The translations under genes were made by a program, and so were the position numbers. A stretch of 64,000 nt of DNA from an uncultured Gammaproteobacteria bacterium (GTDB lineage: Bacteria > Patescibacteriota > Microgenomatia > Levybacterales > UBA12049): NCBI GenBank assembly GCA_964637955.1, contig CAZWXQ010000004.1, positions 81,296 through 145,295 of the forward strand. The letters are read 5' to 3'. Below, piece by piece: positions 15,549 to 28,982 of the stretch. Positions within the stretch are counted from its first letter, which is position 1; each line of letters begins with the position of its first letter. Below the pieces are notes generated by a model. That model saw nothing but the letters and a program-made list of their open reading frames with translations. It had not been told where the DNA came from and did no database searches.

Positions 15549-15914
15549 GTGAATTCTCAAAAAGAAAAATTAGAATTACGACTGAAAAATTTTGGAATTG
15601 AGATCATTAAATTAGTTCGAGTATTACCCAAATCAGAAGAAAATAAAATTTTTGCAAATCAGATCATTAGATCCTCAACATCAATTGGTGCGAATTATGC
15701 TGAGGCAATCTATGGCCAAACAAAACAAGAATTTTTCCACTGTCTTAATATCTGCAGAAAAGAAACAAACGAAACACTTTACTGGCTGGAAATGATTTTA
15801 CTTACAAATCCAAGCTACAATAAGCAAATTGATATTTTAATTCTCGAGAACAAAGAATTACTTAGAATATTTATAAGCTCTGTTAAAACAATTAGCACAA
15901 AAAATGATAAATGA
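15549..15914 (+). CDS. four-helix-bundle protein (23S rRNA intervening-sequence protein family)
   Basis: KNFGIEIIKLVRVLPKSEE...IRSSTSIGANYAEA signature. Likely GTG start at 15549, in frame with the longer track ORF 15465.. whose N-terminus is repeat-encoded. Confidence 0.7.
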   Translation: MNSQKEKLELRLKNFGIEIIKLVRVLPKSEENKIFANQIIRSSTSIGANYAEAIYGQTKQEFFHCLNICRKETNETLYWLEMILLTNPSYNKQIDILILENKELLRIFISSVKTISTKNDK

Positions 15915-15938
15915 TATTTGGTATATAATAATTGATAT

Positions 15939-17276
15939 ATGAACGAAAACGAACTTGTGTTTGAGCGGTTTGAAGCTCTTTATCCTCCAGAAAGCTGGGA
16001 AAATGAAATTAAAAAGTTAGTTGGATTTATTTACTCAGGGAATTCAACTGAAATCATTGGATTTCCAGGTGTTGGAAGATCAAATTTACTTGGAGTACTT
16101 TCCTACAACAGAGCCTGCCGAGAACATAACCTTGGAGACAAACAAACTCAATTTCATTTTATACTCATGAATTTTACCGAAATGAGGAAAAAGAGCGAGC
16201 TTGAAGTCTTAAAATTCTTTTTTATCTCGATCGTTGATTCCTTAAAAGAGAGAAAAATGACCGAAGAAGCCCAGAGAGCCCAGGCGCTTCTTAAAGAAAG
16301 CTTTGAGATCCAGGATCAACAAGTTATCTTGCAAGGCTTAAAAAAGCTCGTTGATTATATTTCAATTGAAAAAAACTTAACCCTAGTATTCTTAATCGAC
16401 AGATTTGAAGAATATATTCCATATGTTACTCCGGAATTTTTCACTGATCTTAGGGCTCTTAGAAATAGAGCAAAATATAAATTTTCCGTAGTCTTCTCGG
16501 TGAATAGACCGTTTCAAGAATTACTAGATCCTGCTACTTATATTGATTTTAATGAATTCCTAGATGGTAATGAGATATATCTTCCCTTAAAAGACAATGC
16601 AAGTTTAAATTTTAGAATCGGCTTTCTGCAAATGAAAGCAAATGAAAATATTTCTCTGGAAAAAATAAACGAGGTATTAACCTTAACATCTGGACACGGA
16701 AAGCTAACCAGACTTTCTATCGAAGCTTTAATGGAAACAGAAGATGTTGACGACTTAAAATCACTTCTACTTAAAAGGCAAAAAATAATTTCTCTTTTTA
16801 ATGAAATCTTAAAAGGCCTAACTCCTTCAGAGCAAAATTATCTTAAAGATTTTGATCCTAAATATAAATCTGAATATCTTGAAAAAATTCATCTTATAAC
16901 TGAGGGTAAAATTTCAATTCCTCTTTTCGAAAGCTTCATAAATGAGCAAAAAAATAATCCTACAGAAGTAAAATCAGAAAAAATTACTTATAATCCTGAT
17001 ACTAACGAAATAAAAGATGGGGAAACTGTACTTTCTGATTCTCTAACATCTTCTGAATATAAATTATTAAAATTTCTAGTAGAAAACGAAGGAAAAATCC
17101 TAGAAAGAGATGAAATAATTAATGCTGTTTGGAAAGATCTATCCTCTACTGCAGGCGTGAGCGAACAAGCGCTTGACCAGCTAATCTTTAGGGTCAGGAA
17201 AAAAATTGAAGAAAATCCGAACACTCCAATCCATCTCCAAACCATAAAAGGGCGGGGATTTAAATTTACCACATAA
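15939..17276 (+). CDS. P-loop (AAA-like) NTPase fused to C-terminal OmpR/PhoB-type winged-helix DNA-binding domain (transcriptional regulator)
   Basis: Walker-A-like GFPGVGRSNLLGVL (Lys replaced by Arg). C-terminal trans_reg_C-like segment SSEYKLLKFLVENEGKILERDEIINAVW...LIFRVRKKIE...IHLQTIKGRGFKF. Confidence 0.65.
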   Translation: MNENELVFERFEALYPPESWENEIKKLVGFIYSGNSTEIIGFPGVGRSNLLGVLSYNRACREHNLGDKQTQFHFILMNFTEMRKKSELEVLKFFFISIVDSLKERKMTEEAQRAQALLKESFEIQDQQVILQGLKKLVDYISIEKNLTLVFLIDRFEEYIPYVTPEFFTDLRALRNRAKYKFSVVFSVNRPFQELLDPATYIDFNEFLDGNEIYLPLKDNASLNFRIGFLQMKANENISLEKINEVLTLTSGHGKLTRLSIEALMETEDVDDLKSLLLKRQKIISLFNEILKGLTPSEQNYLKDFDPKYKSEYLEKIHLITEGKISIPLFESFINEQKNNPTEVKSEKITYNPDTNEIKDGETVLSDSLTSSEYKLLKFLVENEGKILERDEIINAVWKDLSSTAGVSEQALDQLIFRVRKKIEENPNTPIHLQTIKGRGFKFTT

Positions 17277-17314
17277 ATCTAAGATGAATGATTTAAGATT
17301 AATGAATAAAGAGC

Positions 17315-17767
17315 ATGAAAGACGGAAAGATTGAGTCATTTACCGATTTAGTGGTATGGCAAGAGGGTCATAAGCTTGTTGTTGAAATCTACATGATTAC
17401 CAAAGACTTTCCAAACGAAGAAAAATATTCCACAACTGATCAGATGAGAAGAGCTTCTTCATCAGTCACAGCTAATATTGCAGAAGGATTTGGAAGACAA
17501 GGTATTAAAGAAAAAATCCAATTTTATTATCTTTCCAAAGACTCCCTTTCTGAATTAAAAAATTTTCTCTTCATTGCAAGGGATGTGGGATATTTATCAG
17601 AGGTCAAATTCAATTACTTATTGGAAAATTCAAACACAGTTGACAAACTTTTGCAGGGTCTTATTAGAAAAGTAAAACCTTCATCAATCCTTAATCTTAA
17701 ATCATCAATCTTCATAGAGGTTGCAATCTTTTCAACTCTATTCGGCTGTAGCTTTATGAAGAATTGA
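17315..17767 (+). CDS. four-helix-bundle protein (23S rRNA IVS protein family)
   Basis: DLVVWQEGHKLVVEIYMITKDFPNEEKYSTTDQMRRASSSVTANIAEGFGR signature. Confidence 0.75.
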   Translation: MKDGKIESFTDLVVWQEGHKLVVEIYMITKDFPNEEKYSTTDQMRRASSSVTANIAEGFGRQGIKEKIQFYYLSKDSLSELKNFLFIARDVGYLSEVKFNYLLENSNTVDKLLQGLIRKVKPSSILNLKSSIFIEVAIFSTLFGCSFMKN

Positions 17768-17998
17768 AGAAGCAAGCGTCTGATAAGGAATGCCCTCTTC
17801 TATTGCTTTTCTTTTTAACCTTGAGAGATCACGTTCTGTTAATCGAATATTTATGTTTCGTGTTTTATTAAGAGTATTACGAGCAATATCCATAGCTTCT
17901 TTTTTCTCTTTTTCTTGATTTTCTAAAGGAATCCACTCGCCTCTTTCGACTTCATCCAAAAGCTTTTGCTCCTCATCTGTTAGCTTAAAATATTTCAT
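17738..17998 (-). CDS. brnA: BrnA-type antitoxin (RHH/CopG-like)
   Basis: C-terminal NIRLTERDLSRLKRKAIEEGIPYQTLASSILHKA, typical of BrnA. 3 nt downstream of the brnT-like gene. Confidence 0.7.
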   Translation of the reverse strand: MKYFKLTDEEQKLLDEVERGEWIPLENQEKEKKEAMDIARNTLNKTRNINIRLTERDLSRLKRKAIEEGIPYQTLASSILHKATAE

Positions 17999-18001
17999 AT
18001 T

Positions 18002-18277
18002 TTAATTTTTGATTATATATTTTTTTGTCATTTTTCTACTTGGAAATATTGTTTTTAAAAATCGTTTTTCTTCGTCATCGACGAATGGCACTAAAAATAC
18101 GTATTTATTTATATTTACTATGTACATCTTTTGATTTGGATAACGTTTTTTATTTGGATGATCAATAGTTTCTAATAAATTTCCATCATCAATTGCCTGA
18201 ACAACATCCTCAAAACAAACCCCTCTGTCCTCTTTTAACCATTCATTTTTCTTCTTATCCCAATCAAAATATTTCAC
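18002..18277 (-). CDS. brnT: BrnT-family toxin (DUF497 ribonuclease)
   Basis: N-terminal KYFDWDKKKNEWLKEDRGVCFEDVVQAI matches the BrnT motif (FEWDxxKxxxNxxKHGIxFEEA). About 90 aa. Own promoter TTGACA-17-TAAAAT at about 18290-18320 (minus strand). Confidence 0.75.
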   Translation of the reverse strand: MKYFDWDKKKNEWLKEDRGVCFEDVVQAIDDGNLLETIDHPNKKRYPNQKMYIVNINKYVFLVPFVDDEEKRFLKTIFPSRKMTKKYIIKN

Positions 18278-18339
18278 AACTTTCTTAAAATTATTTTATG
18301 ACAAATGATATTATATGTCAATAAATATATGCTTACCAC

Positions 18340-18478
18340 AGACCATAAAAGGCCAGGGATTTAAATTTAGCTCGTAAATAAAGCAAAATTCAAAAGTCAA
18401 AATGCAAAATTGCAATTCAAAAAGTCCAAATTTTTTATTTTTTACTATATCTTTTGACTTTTAATTTTTGAGTTTTAA
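18340..18478. repeat. repeat copy 1: 3' end of regulator gene (CCATAAAAGGCCAGGGATTTAAATT) plus about 100-bp element with inverted arms CAAAAGTCAAAA...TTTTGACTTTT
   Basis: About 97% identical to 19117-19260. First 30 nt match the last codons of the 15939..17276 gene (...TIKGRGFKF). Confidence 0.7.
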
Positions 18479-18501
18479 GTTTAATTATAGCGCAAATTCT
18501 A

Positions 18502-18530
18502 TTGACACTTGTATATTTCTGTAATATACT
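18502..18530 (+). promoter_or_regulatory. sigma70 promoter TTGACA-17 nt-TATACT driving a leaderless brnT transcript
   Basis: -10 ends 4 nt before the TTG/GTG start codon (18534/18537). Predicted TSS coincides with the start codon. Confidence 0.5.
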
Positions 18531-18533
18531 TAT

Positions 18534-18848
18534 TTGGTGACAAGAATATTACCAAAGCCCATTTCCTTTGAATGGGATAAAGGGAATATTGAAAAGAACT
18601 GGAACAAGCATAACGTCACACAAAAAGAAGCTGAAGAAACATTTATCAATAAGCCATTTTTTGTGGTAAATGACAAAAAACATTCTTCTAAAGAGGAGCA
18701 GAGATTTCAAGCATTGGGTAAATCAAAAAGTAACAGAAAATTATTTTTAGTTTTTACAATAAGAGAAATTAGCATTAGGATAATTTCTGCAAGAGATATG
18801 AATAAAAAAGAAAGGAGCATGTATGAAAAAATTAAAACCAATACCTGA
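18534..18848 (+). CDS. brnT: BrnT-family toxin (DUF497)
   Basis: ISFEWDKGNIEKNWNKHNVTQKEAEETF motif; 104 aa; overlaps downstream antitoxin by 26 nt. Confidence 0.75.
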   Translation: MVTRILPKPISFEWDKGNIEKNWNKHNVTQKEAEETFINKPFFVVNDKKHSSKEEQRFQALGKSKSNRKLFLVFTIREISIRIISARDMNKKERSMYEKIKTNT

Positions 18849-19095
18849 ATTTAAAAATGAAAACGAAGAAAGAGATTTTTGGGCTACTGCTGACTCGACT
18901 GAATATATCGATTGGTCTATGGCTGAGGAGGTAATTTTCCCAAATTTAAAATTTTCAACAGAATCAATTTCCCTCAGGCTCCCTTCTTTTTTACTAGCCA
19001 GGATTAAAGAGCTCGCTAACAAACAAGACGTACCATATCAATCTTTAATGAAAATTTATCTAAGTGAAAGGGTAAATAAAGAATTAAATAGTTAA
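18823..19095 (+). CDS. brnA: BrnA-type antitoxin (RHH)
   Basis: C-terminal ISLRLPSFLLARIKELANKQDVPYQSLMKIYLSERV. Confidence 0.7.
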   Translation: MKKLKPIPEFKNENEERDFWATADSTEYIDWSMAEEVIFPNLKFSTESISLRLPSFLLARIKELANKQDVPYQSLMKIYLSERVNKELNS

Positions 19096-19116
19096 AACGC
19101 CTTAATATCCTACCTC

Positions 19117-19260
19117 ATCTCCAAACCATAAAAGGCCGGGGATTTAAATTCACCTCTTAAATAAATCAAAGTTCAAAAGTCAAAATGCAAAATTGCAATT
19201 CAAAAAGTCCAAATTTTTTATTTTTTACTTTATCTTTTGACTTTTAATTTTTGGATTTTA
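19117..19260. repeat. repeat copy 2: regulator-gene 3' remnant (encodes ...LPHLQTIKGRGFKFTS*) plus about 100-bp inverted-repeat element
   Basis: 35/36 nt identical to 17233-17268 of the regulator gene, followed by an element 97% identical to 18378-18475. Confidence 0.7.
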
Positions 19261-19408
19261 ACTTAAAATATTTGCAAAATATTTTCATTTATTCTACGCT
19301 AAATCCAGCACCTAATAATTACATTTGATGTTTGTAAATCTGACAGCTATTAGGCTTAGATTTAATTAAAAAGTTTGAATTTTCTTAAATAGGTGCTAGG
19401 ATAAAATC

Positions 19409-20590
19409 GTGAAGAGAAAATTAATTTATTTTATATTTAGTCTTTTTATATTAATCTCTCAATCATTAATCTTCGCTCCCGCCTTTTCCCCAAAAGCACA
19501 TGCTCTAAACGATTTATGGGACTGTAAAATTTCCTACATAGAGCCAAATCCCCTTACAGATAGCGATAAAAAAATTGACAAGATAACCATAAGCACAGGT
19601 GTTTCAACCCCAGGAAAATACAATGTTTATATAGATGATAAAGGAGGGGACGGCGATATTCATAGAATTAAATCACCCGTCAAATCAGGAGATCATCAAA
19701 TTACAATTGATACCCCATTTGATAAGGAAGGAAGAAGCGTAGATACTAACGACCCAACATTTAAACCTAACTCAACCCTTGATTTTTGGGTGACTCCAAA
19801 ATCAATGAACTCAGACATTTGGCCCGGCACACAGCTTAGCGAGATGGATAAAAGATCTTTTTGTAGAGTCAGTATAGATATTGGGGAAGGAATAGGGGGA
19901 AATGTAAACGAAAGCGAATGTAAAATTCTTGCATCTGGAGAAGGGGTTGGCAAGCCAGTACATCTTAATGTCACCTTTAAAGAAAACTCTGAATACTTAA
20001 ATAATAACTTTCTAATTATAGTTAAAAGCCTTACATCAGGCCAAGAAGTGGAAAGATACAGCCCATATAGCGCTAGCGATCTGCAGAATCCAGGAGTTGA
20101 ACTAAGTAAATTTGACGGGGTTAATCATGTACCCACTATTTTCGATGTTGATGGATATCAAGTAGATCTTCACACCAACGCCGGTCCTCCTTTATGCTCT
20201 TCAATTTTTACAGTAACAGAAACTGGAATTAACAATGCGAAAAGCGCATTCGATGCAGGACTTGGGTTTTTTGCCTGCTCCCCAGACGATCCACTAAATC
20301 CAAAAGAATACACTTGCCACACTGCTATTGGCGACGTTTCCACAGATCCTGAAGGGTTTATAAGAACAGTTTTGGCTTTAATTCTGGGACTAGCAGGCGG
20401 CATACTTCTGATAGTAATCATCTTAAACGGATACAAATTCATGGTTTCCCAAGGAGACCCTGAAAAAATTAAAGATGCCAGGGAAGGCATAGTAGCAGCC
20501 ATTATGGGAATCTTTCTTATCATATTTTCGCTTACTCTCCTAACCATAGTGACTTCAAATATTCTTGATATACCGGGATTTGGAAGCTAG
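19409..20590 (+). CDS. secreted protein with large N-terminal ectodomain fused to a C-terminal T4SS-pilin-like two-helix module
   Basis: Signal peptide MKRKLIYFIFSLFILISQSLIFAPA. C-terminal LILGLAGGILLIVIILNGYKFMVSQGDPEKIKDAREGIVAAIMGIFLIIFSL matches the module shared by the three downstream pilins. Confidence 0.6.
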   Translation: MKRKLIYFIFSLFILISQSLIFAPAFSPKAHALNDLWDCKISYIEPNPLTDSDKKIDKITISTGVSTPGKYNVYIDDKGGDGDIHRIKSPVKSGDHQITIDTPFDKEGRSVDTNDPTFKPNSTLDFWVTPKSMNSDIWPGTQLSEMDKRSFCRVSIDIGEGIGGNVNESECKILASGEGVGKPVHLNVTFKENSEYLNNNFLIIVKSLTSGQEVERYSPYSASDLQNPGVELSKFDGVNHVPTIFDVDGYQVDLHTNAGPPLCSSIFTVTETGINNAKSAFDAGLGFFACSPDDPLNPKEYTCHTAIGDVSTDPEGFIRTVLALILGLAGGILLIVIILNGYKFMVSQGDPEKIKDAREGIVAAIMGIFLIIFSLTLLTIVTSNILDIPGFGS

Positions 20591-20719
20591 AATAGCGACT
20601 AAATGGTAGCGTTTAGGGCTTAGTTAAGAGTAATAAGCAGATATAATCATTTTGGTTCAATTTTCAATTTGAAATTTAAAATTTGAAATAAAACCTGTTT
20701 GCCGACAGGCAAAATTTAA

Positions 20720-21074
20720 ATGATAAATGAAGTTAAATATGACCTAGAGGAAAGAACTACATTATTTTCTGAGGAAATTATTAATCTTTGTAAAAAAAAC
20801 TCCTAAAAATATTGTTACTATTCCCATCGTCAATCAGCTTATCAGATCTGGAACTTCAATTGGAGCAAACTATATGGAAGCGAATGGTGCCAGCAGCAAA
20901 AAAGATTTTAAGAATAAAATATTTATTTGTAAAAAAGAGTCCAAAGAAACAAAATACTGGATAAGGCTACTTGCAAATACCTCCAAAGAAGTCGAAAATG
21001 ACTGTAGACTACTTTGGAAAGAAGCTCAAGAATTGACTTTAATTTTCTCTAAAATTGCAGTAAACACGAAATAG
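20720..21074 (+). pseudogene. four-helix-bundle protein gene disrupted by a frameshift in an A8 tract (20792-20799)
   Basis: MINEVKYDLEERTTLFSEEIINLCKKNS* then +1 frame continues ...IVTIPIVNQLIRSGTSIGANYMEANGASSKKDFKNKIFICKKESKETKYWIRLL. Removing one A restores a full-length protein. Confidence 0.55.
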
Positions 21075-21145
21075 TTTTAAAATTAGTGAATTAACATTTG
21101 ACTGAAAATTAAAAATTTTAAATTTTAAATTCTGATTAACCTAAA

Positions 21146-21463
21146 ATGAAACTAATTTCTTATAAAATTCCAGGTGGCGAAGTGACCGGAGTAGAGGGCA
21201 TGCCAGATAAAGGCTGGGACAGCTTTCAAGGCCTTGTTACGTGGGGTATGACCGTTATCATGATCGGCGCTTCTCTACTTTGCCTTTTTCTTCTTATCAT
21301 GGGTGGGATTCAATGGATCACCTCAGGCGGAGACAAATCTGGGATTGAGGGTGCCAGAAAAAGAATAATTTATGCTCTAATCGGCCTCGTCATAATATTT
21401 TCGTCCTATTTTATAATTAATTTTGTGGGAGATTTTTTTAATTTAAATTTGCTAGGAATCTAA
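21146..21463 (+). CDS. T4SS pilin-like protein (CPR-type, two TM helices)
   Basis: TM1-IMGGIQWITSGGDKSGIEGARKRIIYALIGLVIIF-TM2 module, about 105 aa. Resembles the T4SS_pilin family described from Patescibacteria / VirB2-TrbC-like. Confidence 0.65.
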   Translation: MKLISYKIPGGEVTGVEGMPDKGWDSFQGLVTWGMTVIMIGASLLCLFLLIMGGIQWITSGGDKSGIEGARKRIIYALIGLVIIFSSYFIINFVGDFFNLNLLGI

Positions 21464-21492
21464 AGAAACTGCCCTTCTCTAGAACTCCCCTC

Positions 21493-21942
21493 TTGACAAA
21501 CATTTTAAAACTCCTTACGATCATATTATCTATGAAAAAAGTATCTGCTCTTATTTTTTCCGGAGCTACTTATCTTTCCCTAGCTACGCATGCTTTTGCA
21601 GAAACTCCTATCAACCCTTGTCCAGAAGCCAATCCTGACGGAGCAAATTTTAACATACTTTGCACATTAGCTCCGGGCGGTAGCCTCATATCTTTTCTCG
21701 TTACTGTTGCATTTATTGCAGCCTCTCTCATAGCACTGGGTTTTCTTATTTTTGGGGGAATAAAATGGATAATGTCAGGTGGCGATAAGTCTGGAGTAGA
21801 AGCAGCAAGAAACATGATAGTTGCCGCTTTAGTTGGACTTGTAATTACGTTTTTAGCATATCTCATAATAAACGTCGTATTTACATTCTTTAATTTAGGG
21901 AGCATTACTGGCCTTGTACTCCCTACAATTCCTACGCATTAA
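21493..21942 (+). CDS. T4SS pilin-like protein
   Basis: Signal-like N-terminus, then IFGGIKWIMSGGDKSGVEAARNMIVAALVGLVITF module. Probable true start at internal MKKVSAL (about 21532). Confidence 0.65.
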   Translation: MTNILKLLTIILSMKKVSALIFSGATYLSLATHAFAETPINPCPEANPDGANFNILCTLAPGGSLISFLVTVAFIAASLIALGFLIFGGIKWIMSGGDKSGVEAARNMIVAALVGLVITFLAYLIINVVFTFFNLGSITGLVLPTIPTH

Positions 21943-22019: not shown

Positions 22020-22829
22020 ATGAGAAAAGTTTTCTTATTTTTTTTGGTTTTAATTAGCTTCGCATTATCCTTATATATTTCAAATCCTAAAATAGTCCTT
22101 GCCGAAGGCCCAAACGAAGGAATAAAACTTAGGGAACTTGAAGATACTGGCTGCTTGTATAAGGATGATGATTCTGCGGTAAATGCTGACATCGTTAAGA
22201 GCGTAAATGAAGAAAATGGATATGTCCTCACCTTAGACTGCGTTCCCGTACTTTTCTTCAATTTAGTATTCTGGGCGCTTACTTTTGCTGGACTAGTAGC
22301 ACTACTCTTTGTAATCTTTGGTGGCTTTAAATATATGACCTCTGGAGGCGATCAGAAAGCCGTAGATGGGGGGAGAAAGACTATCACCTGGGCTATCATA
22401 GGGCTTATCGTAATTCTCTTCTCATTCGCGACCGTGAGATTTATTGCAGATATAACTGGCATGGAGTGCTTAACTAGATTTGGATTTATAGGAACTTGTG
22501 GAACAGCAAATGGTGGAGGCGGTGGTGGTGGTGGTGGTGGAGGCGGAGATGGTGGCTGGTGTAGTGATGTTAATCCATCAGGCAGATGTCACACAGAAGG
22601 ACAGGTGTGTAGGATTGAAGGCGGTACACCCACTTGTAGATTTGATTGCGACAACAACCACAGAAATGGCTGGTGCGCTTCCCCTGAAAAATGCAAGAGA
22701 TTCAACGATAATGTTAATATTTATAAATGCCAACTAAAATGCGACGGAATACAAAACGGATACTGTCCAAATGGACAAATTTGCACGTATAATTCCGTGG
22801 ATGGACTTTATCAGTGCCAAAGTCACTAA
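22020..22829 (+). CDS. T4SS pilin-like protein with C-terminal poly-Gly linker and Cys-rich (knottin/EGF-like) domain
   Basis: IFGGFKYMTSGGDQKAVDGGRKTITWAIIGLIVIL module, then G13 run, then about 90 aa with 16 Cys (CSDVNPSGRCHTEGQVCRIEGGTPTCRFDCDNN...). Confidence 0.65.
   Translation: MRKVFLFFLVLISFALSLYISNPKIVLAEGPNEGIKLRELEDTGCLYKDDDSAVNADIVKSVNEENGYVLTLDCVPVLFFNLVFWALTFAGLVALLFVIFGGFKYMTSGGDQKAVDGGRKTITWAIIGLIVILFSFATVRFIADITGMECLTRFGFIGTCGTANGGGGGGGGGGGGDGGWCSDVNPSGRCHTEGQVCRIEGGTPTCRFDCDNNHRNGWCASPEKCKRFNDNVNIYKCQLKCDGIQNGYCPNGQICTYNSVDGLYQCQSH
22511..22555 (+). repeat. GGT/GGA/GGC triplet repeat encoding poly-Gly
   Basis: ggtggaggcggtggtggtggtggtggtggaggcggagatggtggc inside CDS 22020..22829. 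Confidence 0.8.
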
Positions 22830-23038
22830 TATTACACATCTGCCGAGAACACAAAGAATATATTATACAAAATAGATCAGAAGAAAATTAAGAGAATTGT
22901 AAATAAACTATTTGATGAAATAAAAATTGCGCAGACCCTAATTCGCCAAGTTAATAAGCATTTAAATTAAATTTAAATCTAGTACATTAAATGAGCTTCT
23001 GCTATGGTTTTGTAGGAACCTTCGGATCATAATTGACT

Positions 23039-24334
23039 CTAGCGCTGCCCCCCGGGAGTAATCGCGCCACCTGCAAAATCCTTAAATGCACTTGCTGCCA
23101 CAATCGCTACGATTGCAAAAAAGCTCATGCCCTTTAACTTTTTATATTTTTCCTGTTCAAGCTGGCCGAAAAGCTCAGTCATAAATTTAGTTGCTTCTTC
23201 TTGATTCTTAAATTCCCTACCTGTTATCAGCTGTGCAACATTTTTTACCTTAAATACGTCAAAATTCTTTAACATTTCTTCCATATTTCCTCCATCGCCA
23301 AGATCTAAAATAGCATCTGCCCGATGCCTCGGCATTCCGGCCGCCTCCATATTTTTTAGGAGTAAATCTCTAGATGCTGTTCGAGCAGCTTCTACGCGGG
23401 CGGCTTCAACTGGCGAAAGCTGCAAGCCCTCTGCTTCTGGAATATCTTTATAATATGCATTAAGCACCCTTATAGCGTCTCCCATCACATAATCCGCTAA
23501 AGGCTTACCTGTATACGTCTTTGCTCCTCGTACAAGATCAAGCATATTCTGTAATTTTTCAACATCAGCCTTAGGATCTTTATCTTGTATATCCTTAATG
23601 TCTTGGGCTAATCTTGCTTCATATGCATCCATACTCTTTTTTTGAATCTCGGTGACTACTGTGGCATCTGCTTCTGGAGCAGGGTCGTAGCTGGTCGTAT
23701 ATTTACCATCCCTAATTAATCCTTCGATAACAGCTTTCCTGTCTGGAGTTAAAGTAGGAGACTCTAACTCTATTTCTAAGTCAGAGAGATTTCCCGCTTC
23801 TCCATTCTGACCAATTAGCTGCATGTCTTTACTTATTTCTTCATAAGTGGATTTAGCAACCTCATAATCTGGACTATCGCTGGGGACAGTTTTAAGTAAT
23901 CTTAATAAATTTCTCCTATTTTCTGTTATCGCAACTGAAGGATCTGCTGAAGTTGATGAATCATATTCTATACCTGATCTTTCCAAAATTTGTTTCGCTG
24001 AAGTAAATAAACGACCTATTTGTTCTGCTCTGGGTATATTCAAAAATTCCTGAATAGCTGAGTCTAAAATCTCAATGTTAACATCCGCAGATGCTCCAGA
24101 CTGAGCATCAGAAGTAGCCGACTCGGGTCCAACATCGGCACCATCAACAGACTGATCTTCTGGTAATTCAGCAACTGGAACATCGCCTACGGGTGGCACA
24201 GCTTCAGATGGAGGCTTAGGATCTGGCGACACAACCGAATCTGTAACGGGTGCTGGATTAACTTCTTCAGGACCGGCAATTTCTGCTGGATCTAATCCCA
24301 TTTCGACTGCGCTTGGACCACCATCTATAGGCAT
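23039..24334 (-). CDS. hypothetical acidic protein with C-terminal TM anchor
   Basis: 431 aa. P/A/E-rich N-terminus. C-terminal MSFFAIVAIVAASAFKDFAGG hydrophobic tail. Looks GC-richer than flanks by eye. Confidence 0.55.
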   Translation of the reverse strand: MPIDGGPSAVEMGLDPAEIAGPEEVNPAPVTDSVVSPDPKPPSEAVPPVGDVPVAELPEDQSVDGADVGPESATSDAQSGASADVNIEILDSAIQEFLNIPRAEQIGRLFTSAKQILERSGIEYDSSTSADPSVAITENRRNLLRLLKTVPSDSPDYEVAKSTYEEISKDMQLIGQNGEAGNLSDLEIELESPTLTPDRKAVIEGLIRDGKYTTSYDPAPEADATVVTEIQKKSMDAYEARLAQDIKDIQDKDPKADVEKLQNMLDLVRGAKTYTGKPLADYVMGDAIRVLNAYYKDIPEAEGLQLSPVEAARVEAARTASRDLLLKNMEAAGMPRHRADAILDLGDGGNMEEMLKNFDVFKVKNVAQLITGREFKNQEEATKFMTELFGQLEQEKYKKLKGMSFFAIVAIVAASAFKDFAGGAITPGGQR

Positions 24335-24387
24335 AAATTAATACTATATTCATTGCGACCCAATTTCAAGTGTGCTAATCTTAAATT

Positions 24388-26523
24388 ATGTCTGAAGTTA
24401 ATCCGGCAATTCAAGCAGCTGCACATGTCACTCCGCCTGCAACAAACGAATTTATGCCTGCTGCTGCGGCAGATACACATGGTACTGCAGATACTCATGG
24501 AGCGCCTGCGACTGGAACCCATGGCGAAGCTCCACCGGCTCAGCCCAAACAAAGCCGTATGGATAAATTATTTCGGAGAGCTCCAGAAGCTCCAAAGCCT
24601 CCCTCTAATGAAGGCGCAAACGCTAGGCAATCCAGTGTGGTTGAGGGTGGAAAAACCACAAAAACCATACAATTTGATCCGGAAACAAAAGCCAAGATCA
24701 CAGACATCTTGACTGCAAGAATTACTAAAGCAGAGCTTTCAAAAACAAGAGAACCCATCTCCGAAATAGACCAGCGCCTGATTGAATCAGGAATTATGGG
24801 GAGGCTTGCAGATGGAACATATACAGATAAGGACATTTTTACAATTCAAGCTGTTATCACCGACGACTATCTTGAAGGCTCGGCTTACATAGGCAGAATA
24901 GGTGTTTATGATAAAAGACAAGGCAGAGATGTAGGCATTCGCCAAGATGGCAAGATAATGACTCGGATGGATCCAGATCGCAGATATAACCAGCCTACAG
25001 AAGAAAAATTGGCTGCCTTAAACGCTCTAAGAATAAAAGTAAATGAAACTTTACTGGGAAAAGGAGCTAAGGATCCTCTTATTGACTATAATTCATCTAT
25101 TTATCCATATGATCTTATGCGAGGATCTGGCCTAATTTTTAATCAAGAGCTAGCAAAGCAAATTGATGCTTTAGTTACCCAATATTTCCCAGGTGAATCT
25201 GTGAAATCTATATGGAAAAAGGATAGGCCAAAAATGGCAGAAATTATGATCCAGGCAAATGAAAATGCTTTCAAATTCCTAATCGAGGGTAGAGCAGATT
25301 CCATACTTCGGGATCCACCTGACATCAGCGTCGATGCCATAAGACAAAGAGCGACAGAGGCAGGCGGGCCTCCTTCTCAAGAAAAAATAGCACAACTTAC
25401 AAAAGAGGTTGCTGAAGCAACAGAAGCAGAATTAAATGCTCAGCAAGCATACGACGCCCTAGAAGCTAAATATAAGTCTTTGAAGGTATTAAAAAGAACA
25501 AAAGATGATGCCGATGCTGCAGTTAGAAGCTTTAACACTAGCGCAACAGGCCCTGGTGGATTAATAGAAACTGCAAGACAAAATTTATTCGATACAAAAG
25601 CTCGACAAGCTGAAGCTGATCCAAAACAAAAATCTGCTCTCCAGACTAGCGTAGATAGGTATGCTGAGGAGTTAAAAGCATTATTAACAAAACAAGAGCA
25701 GCTTCTAAATGCTCAAGCAACAGCAGGACTCAATTTTACAAATGAAGAACAAGCAGAGCTAGATGAGATCTATAAAGCTGCTGACGGTACTAATCCTGCA
25801 ACCGGAAAATTAAAAGATGCAGAAGAAGCATTAGGAGATGATACTAGGGGAAGAAAGAAAGATACAATTGACAAGCAAAAGGCTTTAAAAGCAGCACAAG
25901 AAAGTGGACCAAAGCCATCAAAAGAGGCTGTGGCAAAATCCGAACAACTTACCTCTTGGGCAGATAGTTATGAGAAAAAAGGGAAAATAACAGAAACTAT
26001 CTGGAAGCAAGGCGATTCAGATCCTTATTCTATAAAAAGCATAAAAGACATCACCATTACGCCGGACGGAACAGTGAAGGGATACGATGCGCTTTTAGAG
26101 CTCATGTTTATTGCAGCAGACCCTAAAGGAGCAGGAAAACACTCGCTGGATCATTATAGACAAATGATGCGTCCTGAGGTTTTTGCCCAACGAGTTCTTA
26201 AAGAGTTTCCAGTCAGAGATCCAAATGAGCCTATCAGCCCACTCACACATAGCTCACTAAACGCTTTAATACATGAGATTGAGCAAGGTGCTCCTGAGAT
26301 AAATGCATTAATGGCTCAACCTTCAAGAACTAATGAGGTAGAATATAGACTCAGGACAATTATGGAAAGCAGAAGAAGAGCCGTAGCTGAAATTACCCAA
26401 ATCGCATTAAATCAATTACCATCAGCCAATAAAGCTGGGTTTGCAAGCTTTGTAAATGAATTAATGATTGAAGGTGCTAGGTCTGCAATGAGAGGAGACC
26501 CACAGTTAAAACTAAACTACTAA
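24388..26523 (+). CDS. hypothetical protein (711 aa)
   Basis: Long ORF, helical/coiled-coil-rich middle, no recognisable catalytic motif; within T4SS island. Confidence 0.55.
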   Translation: MSEVNPAIQAAAHVTPPATNEFMPAAAADTHGTADTHGAPATGTHGEAPPAQPKQSRMDKLFRRAPEAPKPPSNEGANARQSSVVEGGKTTKTIQFDPETKAKITDILTARITKAELSKTREPISEIDQRLIESGIMGRLADGTYTDKDIFTIQAVITDDYLEGSAYIGRIGVYDKRQGRDVGIRQDGKIMTRMDPDRRYNQPTEEKLAALNALRIKVNETLLGKGAKDPLIDYNSSIYPYDLMRGSGLIFNQELAKQIDALVTQYFPGESVKSIWKKDRPKMAEIMIQANENAFKFLIEGRADSILRDPPDISVDAIRQRATEAGGPPSQEKIAQLTKEVAEATEAELNAQQAYDALEAKYKSLKVLKRTKDDADAAVRSFNTSATGPGGLIETARQNLFDTKARQAEADPKQKSALQTSVDRYAEELKALLTKQEQLLNAQATAGLNFTNEEQAELDEIYKAADGTNPATGKLKDAEEALGDDTRGRKKDTIDKQKALKAAQESGPKPSKEAVAKSEQLTSWADSYEKKGKITETIWKQGDSDPYSIKSIKDITITPDGTVKGYDALLELMFIAADPKGAGKHSLDHYRQMMRPEVFAQRVLKEFPVRDPNEPISPLTHSSLNALIHEIEQGAPEINALMAQPSRTNEVEYRLRTIMESRRRAVAEITQIALNQLPSANKAGFASFVNELMIEGARSAMRGDPQLKLNY

Positions 26524-26524
26524 T

Positions 26525-26878
26525 ATGGTAAATAAAGATAATTTAAAAAACTTACTTTCAATTGCGCCAGTCCCTACTAACCTAAAGCCTCAGTTTTTGG
26601 CGCTTATCGACACAGCAAACGAAGACAAGCTTCTCGAGATAGAGTCATTTTGCTGGGAAGCTCTTTTCGCTGAAGCAGAACTGAAAAAACAAAAAATGGA
26701 ATCGGAATATATGCTTAAAGTAGAAAAAGGGGAGATTACTTACTCTGTAGAAGAAATGAATAAATTTGGAGAAATAGTTTCAAACGAGCTAAAAGCAAAG
26801 ATAGATAGCACGCAAACAGCTGGGCAGTTAAATGATATTAGAGAAAAACTCCAGGCCCAAACACCAAACTCAAATTAG
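26525..26878 (+). CDS. hypothetical protein
   Basis: 117-aa ORF starting 2 nt after the upstream stop (operonic). Confidence 0.5.
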   Translation: MVNKDNLKNLLSIAPVPTNLKPQFLALIDTANEDKLLEIESFCWEALFAEAELKKQKMESEYMLKVEKGEITYSVEEMNKFGEIVSNELKAKIDSTQTAGQLNDIREKLQAQTPNSN

Positions 26879-27013
26879 TTTTCACAACTGAGGCTAAAAC
26901 GTCTTAAATTTGATCCACTTTGATTTCTTGAATTAGGATTTTTCACGGTCAATACTTATATACAGTTGCTAGATAATAGTTTCTAGTTATTAGTGTTTTG
27001 AATATAAACTGAA

Positions 27014-27394
27014 TTGATGAGCAACATTAAATCACATAAAGACCTAATTGTATGGCAAAAAAGCATACTTCTCGTAAAAGAGATCTTTATTTTAACTGAT
27101 TCTTTTCCTCAATCTGAAAAATTTGGTATCACAAATCAGATGAGAAGGGCTGCAGTTTCTATTCCTTCAAATATTGCTGAGGGCTATGGAAGGAAATCAA
27201 CTAAAAGCTTTAATCAGTTTTGCTCTATAGCATATGGTTCAGCCTTAGAATTAGAAACTCAAATGATAATTTCTAAAGAACTTGAACTTGGTACAAATAA
27301 TTCTTTTACACTTTCAGAAGATTTATTGCTAGAAGTATTAAAGATGCTTAATAAATTAACAGGAAGTTTTAAAAGTATAACTACTAGTATCTAA
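27014..27394 (+). CDS. four-helix-bundle protein (23S rRNA IVS protein family)
   Basis: HKDLIVWQKSILLVKEIFILTDSFPQSEKFGITNQMRRAAVSIPSNIAEGYGR. Flanked by near-identical 12-13-bp direct repeats TCTAGTTAYTAGT (26982-26994 and 27398-27410). Confidence 0.75.
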   Translation: MMSNIKSHKDLIVWQKSILLVKEIFILTDSFPQSEKFGITNQMRRAAVSIPSNIAEGYGRKSTKSFNQFCSIAYGSALELETQMIISKELELGTNNSFTLSEDLLLEVLKMLNKLTGSFKSITTSI

Positions 27395-27419
27395 AATCTA
27401 GTTACTAGTTACTAATTTT

Positions 27420-28766
27420 ATGGACAATCATCCAATTCCACAAGACATTACAGGATTTCAATTTAAATTAATCGGAAACATGACGGTAAAGCAATTTGTG
27501 TACTTGGCTATTGGCGCAGTTTTAGCCTGGCTTTTCTTTTTCATCATAGATTTCCCCACGATTATTAAATGGCCGCTATCTATTCTCGCAATTACTACTG
27601 GAGCCATTTTCGCATTTGTACCCATAGATGGAAGGCCAATGGATCTTATGCTTACCAATTTTATAAGAGCACTTATCTCACCTACGGAGTTTATCTATGA
27701 AAAAGAAGGAATGAAAATGGAAAACCAAAACATGCCACAGTCTCAGCCATTAAATCTCCCAAGAGTTCATATCGCAATGCCTCAACCAACCGCAAGCGTA
27801 TCTGGTTTTAATCAAGCCTCAATCAATCCAGCTCAATCTGCAATTCCCCAGCCTACCCCTCTTCCAACCCAGCCTCAACTCACAACTCCTGCGACTTCAT
27901 TTCAGCCACCAGTCACAACGCAGCCAATCCCAGCTCTTGCTCAAAGTCCAGCTCCTACTCCTGTTCTAAATATGCAACCTCAAGCACCTGCTCCAATTCC
28001 AATGCCAAGCCCTGCTCCCATTATTCCACATATGACTATTCAAGAAATCGATGAGCCAGAGGACTCAAAGAATCATCACAAAGAACTCAATAGTCTCAAG
28101 GAGGAAAACCAAAAACTTGAGGATGAGCTTGCAAAATTAAAGCTACAATTTGAAGAGGCTCTAAAAGCAAAAGATGAAGCTGCAAAGGTCGAACCACAAG
28201 CTCCTGCGCCTGCGCCTTTAATCATGCCTACTCCTGTTCCACAGCCCACGCCTGACCAAAAAGAGCTAGAAAAACAGCTTATTGAAGCAAACAGAGAAAG
28301 AGAAGCTCTTCAACGACAAATTCTGACACAACAAGCAAAGGCTCAAGCTCCAACTCAAGGAGTTGCTCCACAGGTCGCCACCCCGCCTCCTGTCCAAGCC
28401 ACGCAGCGAGTAAGAAGTATTCCTACCGGGATGGAGAAAGCTGCTGGAATACCAAGTATACCTGAAGCGCCAAACCTCATAACTGGAATTGTTAAAGACC
28501 CGAGAGGAAATCCATTGCAAAACATTTTAATTGAAGTAAAAGATCAGGACGCGAATCCCGTTAGAGCATTTAAAACAAACGGGCTTGGAAAATTTGCATC
28601 AGCCACTTCTCTTTCGAACGGAAAATACCTAATAACTTTTGAGGATGCAAAGGAAGTAAATAAATTTGACGCTGTAGAAATCGAACTCACAGGAGTCCCA
28701 GTCATGCCGCTTGAAATAATATCAGTTGATCCTAGAGAAGAACTGCGAAGGGAGCTTTTTAAATAA
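27420..28766 (+). CDS. PrgI-family (VirB3-like) T4SS membrane protein with long Pro/Gln-rich and coiled-coil C-terminal extension
   Basis: N-terminal QDITGFQFKLIGNMTVKQFVYLAIGAVLAWLFFFII...PIDGRPMDLMLTNFIRAL matches the PrgI/VirB3-like two-TM pattern. About 350 extra residues are rich in P/Q/A with a coiled-coil stretch (LKEENQKLEDELAKLKLQFEE). Confidence 0.55.
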   Translation: MDNHPIPQDITGFQFKLIGNMTVKQFVYLAIGAVLAWLFFFIIDFPTIIKWPLSILAITTGAIFAFVPIDGRPMDLMLTNFIRALISPTEFIYEKEGMKMENQNMPQSQPLNLPRVHIAMPQPTASVSGFNQASINPAQSAIPQPTPLPTQPQLTTPATSFQPPVTTQPIPALAQSPAPTPVLNMQPQAPAPIPMPSPAPIIPHMTIQEIDEPEDSKNHHKELNSLKEENQKLEDELAKLKLQFEEALKAKDEAAKVEPQAPAPAPLIMPTPVPQPTPDQKELEKQLIEANREREALQRQILTQQAKAQAPTQGVAPQVATPPPVQATQRVRSIPTGMEKAAGIPSIPEAPNLITGIVKDPRGNPLQNILIEVKDQDANPVRAFKTNGLGKFASATSLSNGKYLITFEDAKEVNKFDAVEIELTGVPVMPLEIISVDPREELRRELFK

Positions 28767-28803
28767 TTTTCAATTTGAAATTTTAAATTTAAAATCAAAA
28801 AAA

Positions 28804-28959
28804 ATGAACAAAACAAATAAAAATAATTACGACCTAGAAGAAAGAACTACTGTTTTTACAGTAGTAACAAAGAGGCTTAGAAATGACTATAAAGTGCTTT
28901 GGCAACAGGTTCAAAAGCTAACCTTAGTTTTTTCCAAGATAGCTGTAGATATTAAATGA
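28804..28959 (+). pseudogene. internally deleted four-helix-bundle gene remnant
   Basis: Encodes N-terminal NYDLEERTTVF joined directly to C-terminal LWQQVQKLTLVFSKIAVDIK. Compare the 20720 copy YDLEERTTLF...LLWKEAQELTLIFSKIAVNTK. The middle roughly 60 codons are missing. Confidence 0.5.
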
Positions 28960-28982
28960 AAATTAAAAATTATATATAAATT

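Follow-up and report, generated by a model that had tools for sequence, protein, structure and literature searches.

According to our analysis of a 64-kb stretch of DNA (the window), the five four-helix-bundle (4HB) genes found there probably all belong to a single class of small selfish insertion cassettes, that of the ORF-carrying intervening sequences (IVSs) of 23S rRNA. The cassettes sit between the genes of a conserved T4SS locus without reshuffling the gene order. We deem them selfish, as an earlier note on this DNA had suggested, because of presence/absence polymorphism, lineage swaps, the occurrence of the same lineage across positions, lineage-bound arms and a decay series with an ORF-less end stage. 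Through this class, the uncharacterised family of 4HB proteins is connected with 7-base repeats that occur in many bacteria and have lacked an explanation.

A tblastn search of the window with all copies returned exactly five PF05635/TIGR02436 loci, all of them in + orientation and confined to the interval from 15.5 to 29 kb (Table 1); a scan-statistic estimate puts the probability that five uniformly placed copies would cluster in 13.4 of the 64 kb at about 0.008. This agrees with the earlier description of five copies in about 13 kb, three of them intact, one frameshifted and one internally deleted. The intact copies c1, c2 and c4 pass both PF05635 (Pfam cut-off, 33.8 bits) and TIGR02436. 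The c1 ORF starts with GTG, while an alternative ATG at 15465 reads through the 5' heptad array; in c2 the 4HB domain ends at about 17680, the ORF continues across the 3' arm and its tail overlaps a convergent CopG gene; the c4 protein has an exact match on record (P0001). Removal of one A from c3 yields a 117-aa protein scoring 77.8 bits with TIGR02436. The frameshift is probably real, since a Logan assembly of run SRR14271332, made independently, shows the same sequence. In c5, N- and C-terminal segments matching the c3 type are joined; with these segments only 53 to 80% identical and no parent copy at hand, the position of the deletion junction is approximate, and the earlier proposal of a deletion between short homologies is conjectural. 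Together the five copies make up four cassette lineages.

Table 1. Cassettes, 4HB ORFs, regulator segments and ORF-less hairpins in the window
Feature	Position	Strand	Details
ORF-less heptad hairpin beyond the 15.5-29 kb range	1459-1559	.	TRF, stringent period-7 scan; unit AAATTTG/ATTTCAA, same type as c3/c5 arms; arms 1460-1501/1518-1559, 33/42 match; between two divergent genes
Cassette c1	15422-15942	+	5' heptad array (ATTTATG/ATTTACC)n 15422-15542 (TRF period 7/14/21); 3' arm 15902-15940; arms 15461-15499/15902-15940, 31/39 positions match
c1 intact 4HB ORF	15549-15914	+	PF05635 62.6 bits
OmpR-type regulator gene 3' end, original 47-nt segment	17232-17278	+	Direct-repeat family D4
Cassette c2	17281-17767	+	5' arm 17281-17312; 3' arm 17681-17712; arms 32 nt, 81% complementary; second comparison 22/25
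c2 intact 4HB ORF	17315-17767	+	PF05635 121.9 bits
Regulator 3'-end remnant (18333-18379) and ORF-less heptad hairpin	18333-18488	+	TRF, 150-nt repeat D2; arms 18385-18402/18452-18468, unit CAAAAGT type, 17/18 match; fold z = -1.98
Second regulator 3'-end remnant (19116-19162) and ORF-less heptad hairpin	19116-19274	+	TRF, direct repeats, arm match; 91% identity to the 18339-18488 copy; fold z = -1.95
Cassette c3	20647-21149	+	TRF and arm match; 5' arm 20647-20689 (AAATTTR)n; 3' arm 21101-21149, extending to the next pilin gene's start codon at 21146; closing stem present in MFE and centroid folds
c3 frameshifted 4HB ORF	20720-21074	+	Broken in an A8 run, 20792-20799
Cassette c4	26964-27415	+	5' arm 26964-26997 (CTAGTTA type); 3' arm 27379-27415, overlapping the ORF end; arms 24/31 match, with gaps
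c4 intact 4HB ORF	27014/27017-27394	+	PF05635 128.8 bits
Cassette c5	28756-28980	+	5' arm 28756-28795, AAATTTR unit as in c3; 3' arm 28954-28980
c5 internally deleted 4HB remnant, 51 aa	28804-28959	+	Residues ~1-17 and ~88-117 of c3 type

Each of the five genes lies between two arms of about 35 nt, built of tandem repeats of about 7 nt, the 3' arm being the reverse complement of the 5' arm. A stringent scan of the window found five arrays of period 7, all coinciding with cassettes or ORF-less hairpins, versus none of period 5, 6, 8, 9 or 10. The direct repeats previously reported around the 27014 copy do exist, in that TCTAGTTAYTAGT occurs twice (26982 and 27397, versus 0.17 occurrences expected), but both lie in cassette c4 as parts of nearly self-complementary, CTAG-containing heptad arrays and are cassette arms rather than target duplications. 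Likewise, the upstream motif shared by c3 and c5, TTTTCAATTTGAAATTTNAAATTT (20661 and 28767, versus 0.03 expected), is more specifically part of the heptad arms. Flanking repeats recur at all the other copies, as inverted heptad arrays and not as direct repeats.

The same architecture was found well outside the window. In all 14 cassettes from the window and from the VirB4 loci, the flanks are heptad-periodic (lag-7 autocorrelation, z = 13) and mutually complementary, with units that differ between cassettes. Among 73 non-redundant metagenomic 4HB cassettes, 7 was the best period of the upstream flank in 56 and of the downstream flank in 64, compared with 25 and 29 of 133 control ORFs. When arms were compared as inverted repeats, 88% of cognate pairs had a Smith-Waterman score of at least 30, as did 36% of the non-cognate pairs and 2% of the controls. 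Arms have a median length of 37 nt, or about five units, the unit being a heptanucleotide and in a few cassettes an octanucleotide. The metagenomic and protein-database samples were picked by similarity to the window copies, so that CPR genomes, with their T4SS loci, make up most of them. Cyanobacterial plasmids and plasmids of Riemerella (Bacteroidota) carry the same kind of heptad arms, and in Azospirillum a 4HB ORF with heptad arms lies inside the LSU rRNA, as a genuine 23S rRNA IVS. In 43 of 53 cases the 4HB gene points in the same direction as both of its neighbours, and in none of the 53 is it antisense to both; exceptions are a Nostoc edaphicum copy antisense to its neighbours and, as regards the arms, Pseudanabaena, where the arrays are in direct orientation.

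The window locus is a chromosomal, oriC-proximal T4SS-dnaN-dnaA region, and comparison with its relatives shows the cassettes as discrete, precisely bounded units. One relative (L005) holds cassettes at three junctions where two others (L007 and L003; VirB4 95 to 98% identical) have spacers of 0 to 6 nt. At the pilin/pilin and PrgI/TraC-like junctions these empty spacers are array-free, so that the arms came with the ORF there. No target-site duplication was seen in three filled/empty comparisons, and neither a transposase nor an integrase nor a reverse transcriptase was found in the window. The similarity of heptads follows that of the proteins (Spearman -0.43; none of 500 permutations as extreme): proteins of the c4 type, 62 to 73% identical, occupy the c1, c3, c4 and c5 positions of other genomes, with CTAG-type arms in every one. 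Arm type follows gene lineage rather than site.

These observations bear on an alternative that we consider unlikely, namely that the heptad arrays are the primary hot spots of recombination and insertion, where cargo accumulates and from which rearrangement of the locus is driven. The BrnT/CopG module (18534-19095) indeed has a 150-nt direct repeat on either side, composed of a regulator remnant and a heptad hairpin, and the 3' end of the regulator is present three times (D4 identity of the two repeated segments, 77% and 91%); in L116 the same regulator/pilin junction holds a gene for a HicA toxin together with two other small genes; and outer heptad-like sequence around the pilin-junction cassette of L005 may reflect nesting. 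In addition, L003 and L007, whose sites upstream of PrgI are empty, retain a CTAG-type 5' arm there, which could be a loss scar or a pre-existing landing pad. However, relatives that carry cassettes and relatives that lack them have the same core T4SS gene order, the array-free spacers described above are at odds with arrays that precede the ORF, and arm type goes with ORF lineage across sites. The earlier view of the 4HB genes as recombination substrates has one point in its favour, the BrnT/CopG module, and that of their reshuffling the island is unsupported.

It is improbable, too, that the 4HB genes are vertically inherited members of the T4SS operon, such as small regulators or chaperones, that were lost in some lineages while nothing moved. 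The same junctions are filled in the window, L005, L006 and L011, the copy upstream of PrgI in L005 is 72% identical to c4 and shares its arms, and the arm left at the empty sites is what loss predicts. This reading is nonetheless largely refuted by lineage replacement at the PrgI/TraC-like junction, where L001 and L005 hold different cassette lineages, despite 95% VirB4 identity, and L002 is empty. Moreover, the copy upstream of PrgI in L006 is only about 20% identical to c4, c4-type proteins are found at four different junctions, and c3 is nearer to a copy in an unrelated context of a distant genome (L015_a, 70% identity) than to its counterpart at the orthologous L005 site (42%). Homologous cassettes also occur within housekeeping operons (prfB/ftsE, ftsX/rpsA and gmhA-like/gmhB-like), in cas operons, between ribonucleotide reductase genes and inside 23S rRNA. 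While the gene context in the window is as previously described, a module boundary in practice means any gene junction, and the proposal that 4HB genes mark the boundaries of accessory regions is unsupported.

We regard it as very unlikely that the arrays are slippage-prone simple repeats, acting in contingency or translational control of their neighbours, with an incidental link to 4HB genes. For Beggiatoaceae and Nostoc, a regulatory role has been proposed for heptamers near start codons, heptamer copy number differs among Coxiella strains, and the window and related loci also contain arrays without an ORF. On the other hand, the arms are cassette-specific complementary pairs around an ORF, period-7 arrays number 12 in five 4HB-carrying VirB4 loci versus none in eleven 4HB-free loci (about 190 kb), and 4HB genes are seen together with such arrays in CPR bacteria, Cyanobacteria, Bacteroidota, Alphaproteobacteria and Gammaproteobacteria. 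The cassettes decay in place, from frameshift (c3) through internal deletion (c5) to a final stage, the ORF-less heptad hairpins at 18380, 19166 and 1459.

The ORF and its arms travel together as one unit and enter the few bases separating a stop codon from the next start codon, nearly always in sense with the host operon, and certain CPR T4SS junctions are hit repeatedly by differing lineages. In the co-transcript the arms may pair into an approximately 35-bp stem whose loop holds the ORF; RNase III would cleave this stem, as demonstrated for rRNA IVSs, and would thereby free the 4HB message and render the insertion tolerable. Since the 5' arm ends a median of 6 nt before the 4HB start codon, the ribosome-binding region would lie within the stem. 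However, arm mismatches show no excess of G-U over A-C (88 versus 109), so that an inverted repeat acting at the DNA level explains the arms equally well as pairing in the sense RNA. The stems of the window copies, which are AT-rich, are weak (flank-duplex energy z-scores only +0.2 to -2.7), and whole-cassette folds of the window copies are not significantly stable.

Like the 23S rRNA IVSs of Leptospira and Coxiella burnetii (S23p), the cassettes carry a gene of the same protein family in the loop of a terminal-inverted-repeat stem, are similar in size (about 430 to 550 bp) and are sporadically distributed in a manner suggestive of horizontal spread. In the Coxiella IVS, GACAGAT heptamers immediately precede the S23p start codon and RNase III cleaves a 28-bp stem (PMC4990558); the Azospirillum rRNA IVS has the same heptad arms as well. 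In contrast to the rRNA IVSs, the window copies lie between protein-coding operon genes and not in an rRNA helix. The generality of heptad arms and the ORF-less derivatives are apparently absent from published descriptions of rRNA IVSs.

Free-standing homing endonuclease genes, such as T4 mobE between nrdA and nrdB, are likewise small selfish ORFs between conserved co-transcribed genes, with presence/absence polymorphism at fixed junctions among close relatives, and one cyanobacterial 4HB cassette similarly separates ribonucleotide reductase subunit genes. Unlike them, the 4HB cassettes yielded no nuclease domain with Pfam, NCBIfam or PADLOC, and homing endonuclease genes are not known to have inverted heptad arms.

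It is hardly credible that the 4HB genes encode the Avd accessory protein of diversity-generating retroelements (DGRs) and that their flanks are DGR parts. DGRs are common in CPR genomes, and PF22296 (bAvd; 27.2 and 20.2 bits) and the Avd model of NCBIfam both match weakly. Scores with the latter (16.5 to 21.8 bits), however, are far under its cut-off of 80, none of the 46 larger window products scanned matched a reverse transcriptase in Pfam, no reverse transcriptase or template/variable repeat was found nearby, and short tandem heptads are unlike template/variable repeat pairs. Avd does share with the 4HB proteins a homologous, nucleic-acid-binding pentameric four-helix-bundle fold, and we speculate that a pentameric, Avd-like 4HB protein might be the trans-acting partner that recognises cognate heptad arrays.

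A partnership of this kind, by analogy with REP/REPIN sequences and their RAYTs, is plausible. In both, a single-copy-type gene lies between inverted short repeats that are also scattered gene-free in the genome, and in the 4HB case repeat type co-varies with protein lineage. RAYTs, however, are HUH Y1 transposase homologues with known DNA-cleaving chemistry, whereas 4HB proteins have no known catalytic motif, and REPs are single palindromes whereas the cassette arms are tandem heptads. Orphan heptanucleotide repeats (cyanobacterial STRR, Xanthomonas GGGAATC and Beggiatoaceae TAACTGA) are also intergenic 7-nt arrays near start codons, often in convergent inverted pairs and in the same phyla that are rich in 4HB genes, but they have been published as regulatory or G-quadruplex elements with no partner protein named, and the majority of arrays have no neighbouring 4HB gene. 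One segment of a Nostoc plasmid has eight period-7 arrays, five of which are built of the same unit as the 4HB cassette residing there. Of the 186 GGGAATC arrays of Xanthomonas, one lies between the 4HB gene XCC0516, whose start it overlaps, and the neighbouring bccP gene XCC0517 (PMC4692102 supplement). XCC0516 is the 4HB protein of PDB entry 2gsc, which was matched in this analysis.

According to tblastn searches with every copy as query, the window holds exactly five genes of the four-helix-bundle (4HB) family (PF05635/TIGR02436), here c1 to c5, all on the plus strand and all within 15.5-29 kb. Together with the profile scores, these searches agree with the earlier note, which had counted three intact copies, one frameshifted and one internally deleted. 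The intact copies c1, c2 and c4 score 62.6, 121.9 and 128.8 bits on PF05635 (cut-off, 33.8) and 83.6, 111.8 and 118.1 bits on TIGR02436 (cut-off, 24). The frame of c3 is broken by one surplus A in a run of eight; after repair it encodes a 117-aa protein scoring 77.8 bits on TIGR02436, while its C-terminal fragment by itself gave 28.8 bits, reported as below cut-off. An independent Logan assembly shows the frameshifted sequence unchanged, which makes an assembly error unlikely. The c5 ORF, 51 aa long, fuses the N-terminal ~17 residues of a c3-type protein to the C-terminal ~30; it matched no profile and was recognized solely through tblastn to c3 (E = 1e-8 and 6e-3). Visual inspection and the tblastn segments served to bracket its deletion junction, a global MAFFT alignment of c3 and c5 having been dropped because it misplaced the 5' part.

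Among the five, a deep split separates the c2/c4 subfamily from c1/c3/c5. The only solved structure matching c4 by sequence is PDB 2gsc, the Xanthomonas protein XCC0516 (E = 2.5e-22, residues 6 to 92), and through this match c4 qualifies, at the level of sequence, as a homologue of a pentameric four-helix bundle. At E <= 1e-10, c4 has more than 7,800 matches among database proteins. Neither c4 nor repaired c3 matched the known anti-phage defence proteins in PADLOC, and the phage collection searched contained no homologue of c4.

Features of the window discussed in the text, with the repeat unit of each arm or array
Feature	Position (nt)	Strand	Remarks
tmRNA	299-710
ORF-less heptad hairpin	1459-1559		c3/c5 unit
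tRNA cluster	3613-10639		five tRNA-Ser (GCT, ACT, GGA, CGA, TGA) and tRNA-Arg(GCG)
c1		+	intact; arm unit ATTTATG
Regulator 3' end (last ~47 nt)	17232		first of three copies
c2		+	intact; arm unit a 14-nt AAGATGA-ATGATTT pattern
Regulator 3' end, extra copy	18333
ORF-less heptad hairpin	18380-18482		CAAAAGT-type unit
Regulator 3' end, extra copy	19116
ORF-less heptad hairpin	19166-19274		CAAAAGT-type unit
c3		+	frameshifted in the A8 run 20792-20799; arm unit AAATTTR
Glycine run of the 269-aa pilin	22511-22561		13 glycines, (TGG)n-like tandem repeat
Three-gene block	23039-26878 (region 22830-26900)		431 aa (-), 711 aa and 117 aa
c4		+	intact; arm unit CTAGTTA
c5		+	deletion junction about 28855-28870; arm unit AAATTTR
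215-aa protein	28983-29630
dnaN	35802-36917	-
dnaA	37085-38455	-
Weak period-7 TRF row	48399-48421		TTTAATT; fails the stringent scan, resembles plain AT-rich low complexity
Weak period-7 TRF row	63744-63773		TTTTATT; fails the stringent scan, resembles plain AT-rich low complexity

Each copy is directly preceded by a run of ~7-nt tandem repeats and directly followed by a second run, which is the reverse complement of the first. In the five copies these arms measure 21-42 nt with 77-94% identity; among cassettes in general the median arm length is 37 nt, with a median of 6 nt from the end of the 5' arm to the start codon and of 17 nt from the stop codon to the 3' arm. We refer to the ORF with both arms as a cassette and to the 7-nt unit as a heptad. 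Both short motifs quoted in the earlier note are present in the window above chance expectation, and because the c4 unit contains the palindrome CTAG, the c4 arms resemble direct as well as inverted repeats, which is what that note had seen. A stringent periodicity scan of the whole window returned five arrays of period 7 and nothing at periods 5, 6, 8, 9, or 10; two of the five lie at 4HB copies and the other three are inverted heptad hairpins devoid of an ORF.

All five copies thus have the 4HB ORF between terminal inverted repeats that could pair into a stem of at least 20 bp, and the closing stems of c3 and of a copy in the related locus L005 are present in both the MFE and the centroid folds. 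Whole-cassette MFE z-scores were not significant since the ORF dominates the fold, so the folds inform only on whether the closing stem is there. RNAduplex energies of 100-nt flanks gave z-scores of only +0.2 to -2.7, cognate pairs being not clearly better than non-cognate ones; this test, too permissive for AT-rich sequence, was replaced by Smith-Waterman inverted-repeat scores on a large sample.

The copies lie between the genes of a locus resembling a type IV secretion system (T4SS), with an OmpR-type regulator, four T4SS_pilin genes, PrgI, VirB4/TraG-P-loop and others, whose closest VirB4 homologues (77-80% identical) come from Candidatus Levyibacteriota-like (CPR/Patescibacteria) metagenome-assembled genomes; the window is a piece of the chromosome of a genome of this kind. 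An exact look-up of the PrgI protein gave no record. The locus adjoins dnaN, and beyond dnaA follow yidC, leuS, ruvB, purB, purA, and dnaG, in that order; with dnaN and dnaA directly downstream and the cumulative GC skew minimum near 30-38 kb, we place it beside the replication origin. Since the T4SS-dnaN-dnaA synteny is found in most of 16 related loci (partially in the shortest), the locus is a conserved chromosomal region and not a mobile island. Three genes that gave no curated Pfam match, and no tblastn match (E <= 1e-4) in the 16 related loci, form a block separating the conserved PrgI leader from the last pilin gene; by this comparison the block is specific to the window genome among the loci compared. 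The 215-aa protein is labelled TraC-like in other records; two homologues (L112 4081-4725 and L121 2898-3521) carry a precomputed Pfam hit to PF26593 (TraC-like), which our Pfam scan did not report for the window protein.

Comparison of near-identical relatives reveals insertion polymorphism. VirB4 proteins of the loci L001, L002, L003, L005, and L007 are 95-98% identical, yet L005 carries cassettes at the pilin|pilin, x|PrgI, and PrgI|TraC-like junctions, as inserts of 534, ~393, and 482 bp, and L003 and L007 carry none, the matching sites being spacers of 0-6 nt. At the PrgI|TraC-like junction, L001 harbors a cassette of the type of c3 and of L015_a (a copy in L015) with GAAAATT arms, L005 harbors one of the CTAAATC type, and L002 is empty. 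Relationships among the proteins do not follow the sites: c3 is 70% identical to a copy from L015, where the context differs and VirB4 is only 56% identical, versus just 42% to the copy that L005 has at the orthologous site, and the two c3-type copies inside L005 are more closely related to one another than to any other copy. The proteins nearest to c4 in the databases (62-73% identical) occupy the positions of c1, c3, c4, and c5 in other CPR genomes, and every one of them has CTAG-type arms. Likewise, in the metagenomic sample described below, proteins that are more alike tend to have heptads that are more alike (Spearman, -0.43; 0 of 500 permutations as extreme). From polymorphism, lineage replacement, and arm-protein covariation we conclude that ORF and arms travel, and are inherited, as one, and that certain junctions are hot spots invaded repeatedly. 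The proposal of the earlier note that 4HB genes are selfish units is upheld by these data. Twelve stringent period-7 arrays were counted in the five 4HB-bearing VirB4 loci, against 0 in the eleven 4HB-free ones (about 190 kb). Across three filled/empty comparisons no target-site duplication was consistent, with only AT(G)/ATGGRA microhomology at start codons. No recombinase, integrase, transposase, or reverse transcriptase was found in the window, the last according to a Pfam scan of the 46 larger window products. At the TraC-like|VirB4 junction, ORF-less heptad arrays occur in L005 (6140-6170) and L006 (9816-9979), both carriers of 4HB cassettes, and L086 holds a full cassette there.

All stages of a decay path coexist in the window: intact, frameshifted, internally deleted, and reduced to an ORF-less hairpin. 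The unit of the two hairpins between regulator and pilins is that of an intact cassette in L006. Remnants elsewhere include a 46-aa 4HB ORF in L026 and an N-terminal stub ('NKYDLEERTV') upstream of the second L015 copy. The regulator and the first pilin gene are separated by ~45 nt in relatives versus 2.1 kb in the window, where the insert comprises, in order, c2, a CopG/BrnT module on the minus strand, a remnant of the regulator 3' end with a hairpin, a BrnT/CopG module on the plus strand, and a second remnant with a hairpin. The regulator 3' end is thereby present three times, both extra copies being directly followed by an ORF-less heptad hairpin, and the second of the two BrnT/CopG toxin-antitoxin modules is flanked by 150-nt direct repeats of 91% identity. 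Only here do heptad elements resemble recombination substrates; the claim that 4HB genes drive the reshuffling of the region was wrong. In the related locus L116, the same junction holds a HicA toxin gene and two small genes.

The heptad-arm architecture is general. Over 14 cassettes from the window and the VirB4 loci, lag-7 autocorrelation of the flanks reached z = 13. A metagenome scan queried with an alignment of five c3-type sequences returned 80 loci, the sample analyzed being 73 non-redundant complete cassettes. Seven was the best period in the upstream flank of 56 of the 73 cassettes versus 25 of 133 control ORFs of the same loci, and in the downstream flank of 64 versus 29. Median Smith-Waterman scores between the upstream and the reverse-complemented downstream flank were 40 for cassettes, 24 for non-cognate pairs, and 16 for control ORFs. 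A tblastn search of plasmids with c4 matched 34 records, mostly cyanobacterial, of which 15 were fetched for inspection of the arms. Inverted heptad (in some cases octad) arms were identified in Nostoc edaphicum (GGGAGTA/TCCCTAC), Nostoc C052, N. punctiforme, Geminocystis, Stanieria, Picosynechococcus, Calothrix, Leptolyngbya, Anabaena sp. 90, and Riemerella (Bacteroidota). Gemmatirosa (Gemmatimonadota) has a clear period-8 array on the downstream side only. Exceptions to the rule are two Nostoc PCC 7120 copies with a 3' arm only and a Pseudanabaena galeata plasmid copy (cas6|4HB|cas4), whose arrays, 17 perfect AAAGCTA units upstream of the gene and about 10 AAAGCCA units downstream, are direct and not inverted. 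The PCC 7120 copy on the gamma plasmid directly adjoins an annotated ISL3 transposase gene as its 5' neighbor. The expectation that flanking repeats would recur at other copies is therefore confirmed, in the form of inverted heptad arms in metagenomic and plasmid cassettes.

The cassettes settle mostly in sense within operons. Among 53 metagenomic cassettes with two callable neighbors, both neighbors are co-oriented with the 4HB gene in 43, and in none is the gene antisense to both. The cassette takes up the entire intergenic space, with medians of 56 nt on the upstream side (preceding stop to 4HB start) and of 66 nt on the downstream side (4HB stop to following start). The junctions occupied include prfB|ftsE, ftsX|rpsA, a gmhA-like|gmhB-like pair, a glycosyltransferase|UDP-glucose dehydrogenase pair, T4SS junctions, 23S rRNA, and, in cyanobacteria, cas6|cas4 (as in Anabaena sp. 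90), cmr2|cmr3 (as in Picosynechococcus PCC 7003), and ribonucleotide reductase beta|alpha. With cassettes elsewhere found in housekeeping and cas operons and in rRNA, the association with boundaries of accessory regions put forward in the earlier note does not hold, this being an outcome that the note itself had named as refuting it. On the Nostoc edaphicum plasmid pNe_5, the cassette lies antisense between the ribonucleotide reductase beta and alpha genes, and within 5 kb of it are ORF-less arrays of its own GGGAGTA unit (43210-43251 and 48884-48969), one single and one an inverted pair.

Among known systems, the ORF-containing intervening sequences (IVSs) of rRNA are the closest, as they share an S23p-family ORF inside terminal inverted repeats. 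However, the window copies lie between protein-coding genes and not in a 23S or 16S helix; at gathering thresholds Rfam found nothing inside the cassettes and no rRNA in the window, so they are IVS-like in build and not rRNA IVSs. The element is an IVS-type 4HB cassette that resides in operons instead of rRNA. A copy from Azospirillum lipoferum, situated inside a bacterial LSU rRNA gene, represents a true rRNA IVS and likewise has heptad arms. In the Coxiella IVS, the start codon of S23p is closely preceded by three or four GACAGAT heptamers, and the 28-bp terminal stem is cleaved by RNase III (PMC4990558). For Xanthomonas, a supplementary table of GGGAATC repeats places one array between XCC0517 and XCC0516, where it runs across the start codon of the latter; its authors make no connection with that protein (PMC4692102). 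The REP/RAYT system shares the layout of a gene set between inverted copies of a repeat, further copies of which are scattered on their own, as in the window hairpins (that near position 1459 being of the c3/c5 type), the Nostoc plasmid segment, and the Xanthomonas supplement. It differs in that homology to HUH Y1 transposases is absent here, 4HB profile hits being restricted to PF05635 and bAvd, and the resemblance is one of organization and not of membership. The remaining candidates were set aside: the accessory protein Avd of diversity-generating retroelements (NF033474, 16.5 and 21.8 bits against a cut-off of 80; no reverse-transcriptase hit), a classical IS or MITE (no transposase in the window, no consistent target-site duplication), and an integron attC (no integrase in the window).

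By the precedent of rRNA IVSs, the arms would pair in the co-transcript and RNase III would cut the resulting stem; RNase III excision from the transcript is known for rRNA IVSs only (PMC4990558). The weakness of AT-rich stems counts against taking this step as established, and since arm mismatches show no excess of G-U over A-C (88 versus 109), we do not claim selection at the RNA level. Speculatively, an Avd-like 4HB pentamer might bind about five cognate heptads, an idea drawn entirely from arm length, the pentameric 2gsc, unit-protein covariation, and orphan arrays bearing the unit of the resident cassette. We tentatively extend it, while deeming the extension rather more apt to fail than to hold: PF05635/TIGR02436 proteins and heptanucleotide repeats may form a RAYT/REP-like two-component system in many phyla, in which the pentamer would recognize about five cognate heptads, as RNA or single-stranded DNA, and maintain, spread, or regulate them. 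In that case rRNA IVSs, operon cassettes, and thousands of orphan heptamer arrays, among them cyanobacterial STRR, Xanthomonas GGGAATC, and Beggiatoaceae TAACTGA, would be autonomous and non-autonomous members of one element family.

Heptanucleotide tandem repeats have been known in cyanobacteria since about 1990. A 2022 preprint describes their binding partner as 'yet to be identified', and the mobility of ORF-carrying rRNA IVSs was proposed by Ralph and McClelland (1993), as cited in PMC4990558. No paper found in our literature search states a general association of 4HB genes with heptads, and the heptad-arm architecture as a general rule appears not to have been described before. It suggests a link between 4HB cassettes and the orphan heptamer repeats of many bacteria, and joins three separate puzzles, namely the origin and mobility of IVSs, the function of the 4HB family, and the meaning of heptanucleotide repeats. 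For annotation, 4HB genes within T4SS, cas, ribonucleotide reductase, or fts operons should be read as insertions and not as pathway components, and short heptad hairpins as leftovers of such insertions; cassette presence or absence offers a fast-evolving marker among near-identical CPR genomes.

Two further observations concern the pilins and the tRNA genes. In the 269-aa pilin, the glycine run precedes a cysteine-rich C-terminal domain, and in L003 the C-terminal domain of the large pilin occurs twice (5297-5560 and 6258-6521), which suggests a tandem duplication of the pilin gene. In the tRNA cluster, tRNA-Ser(ACT) stands beside tRNA-Ser(GCT), an unusual pairing.
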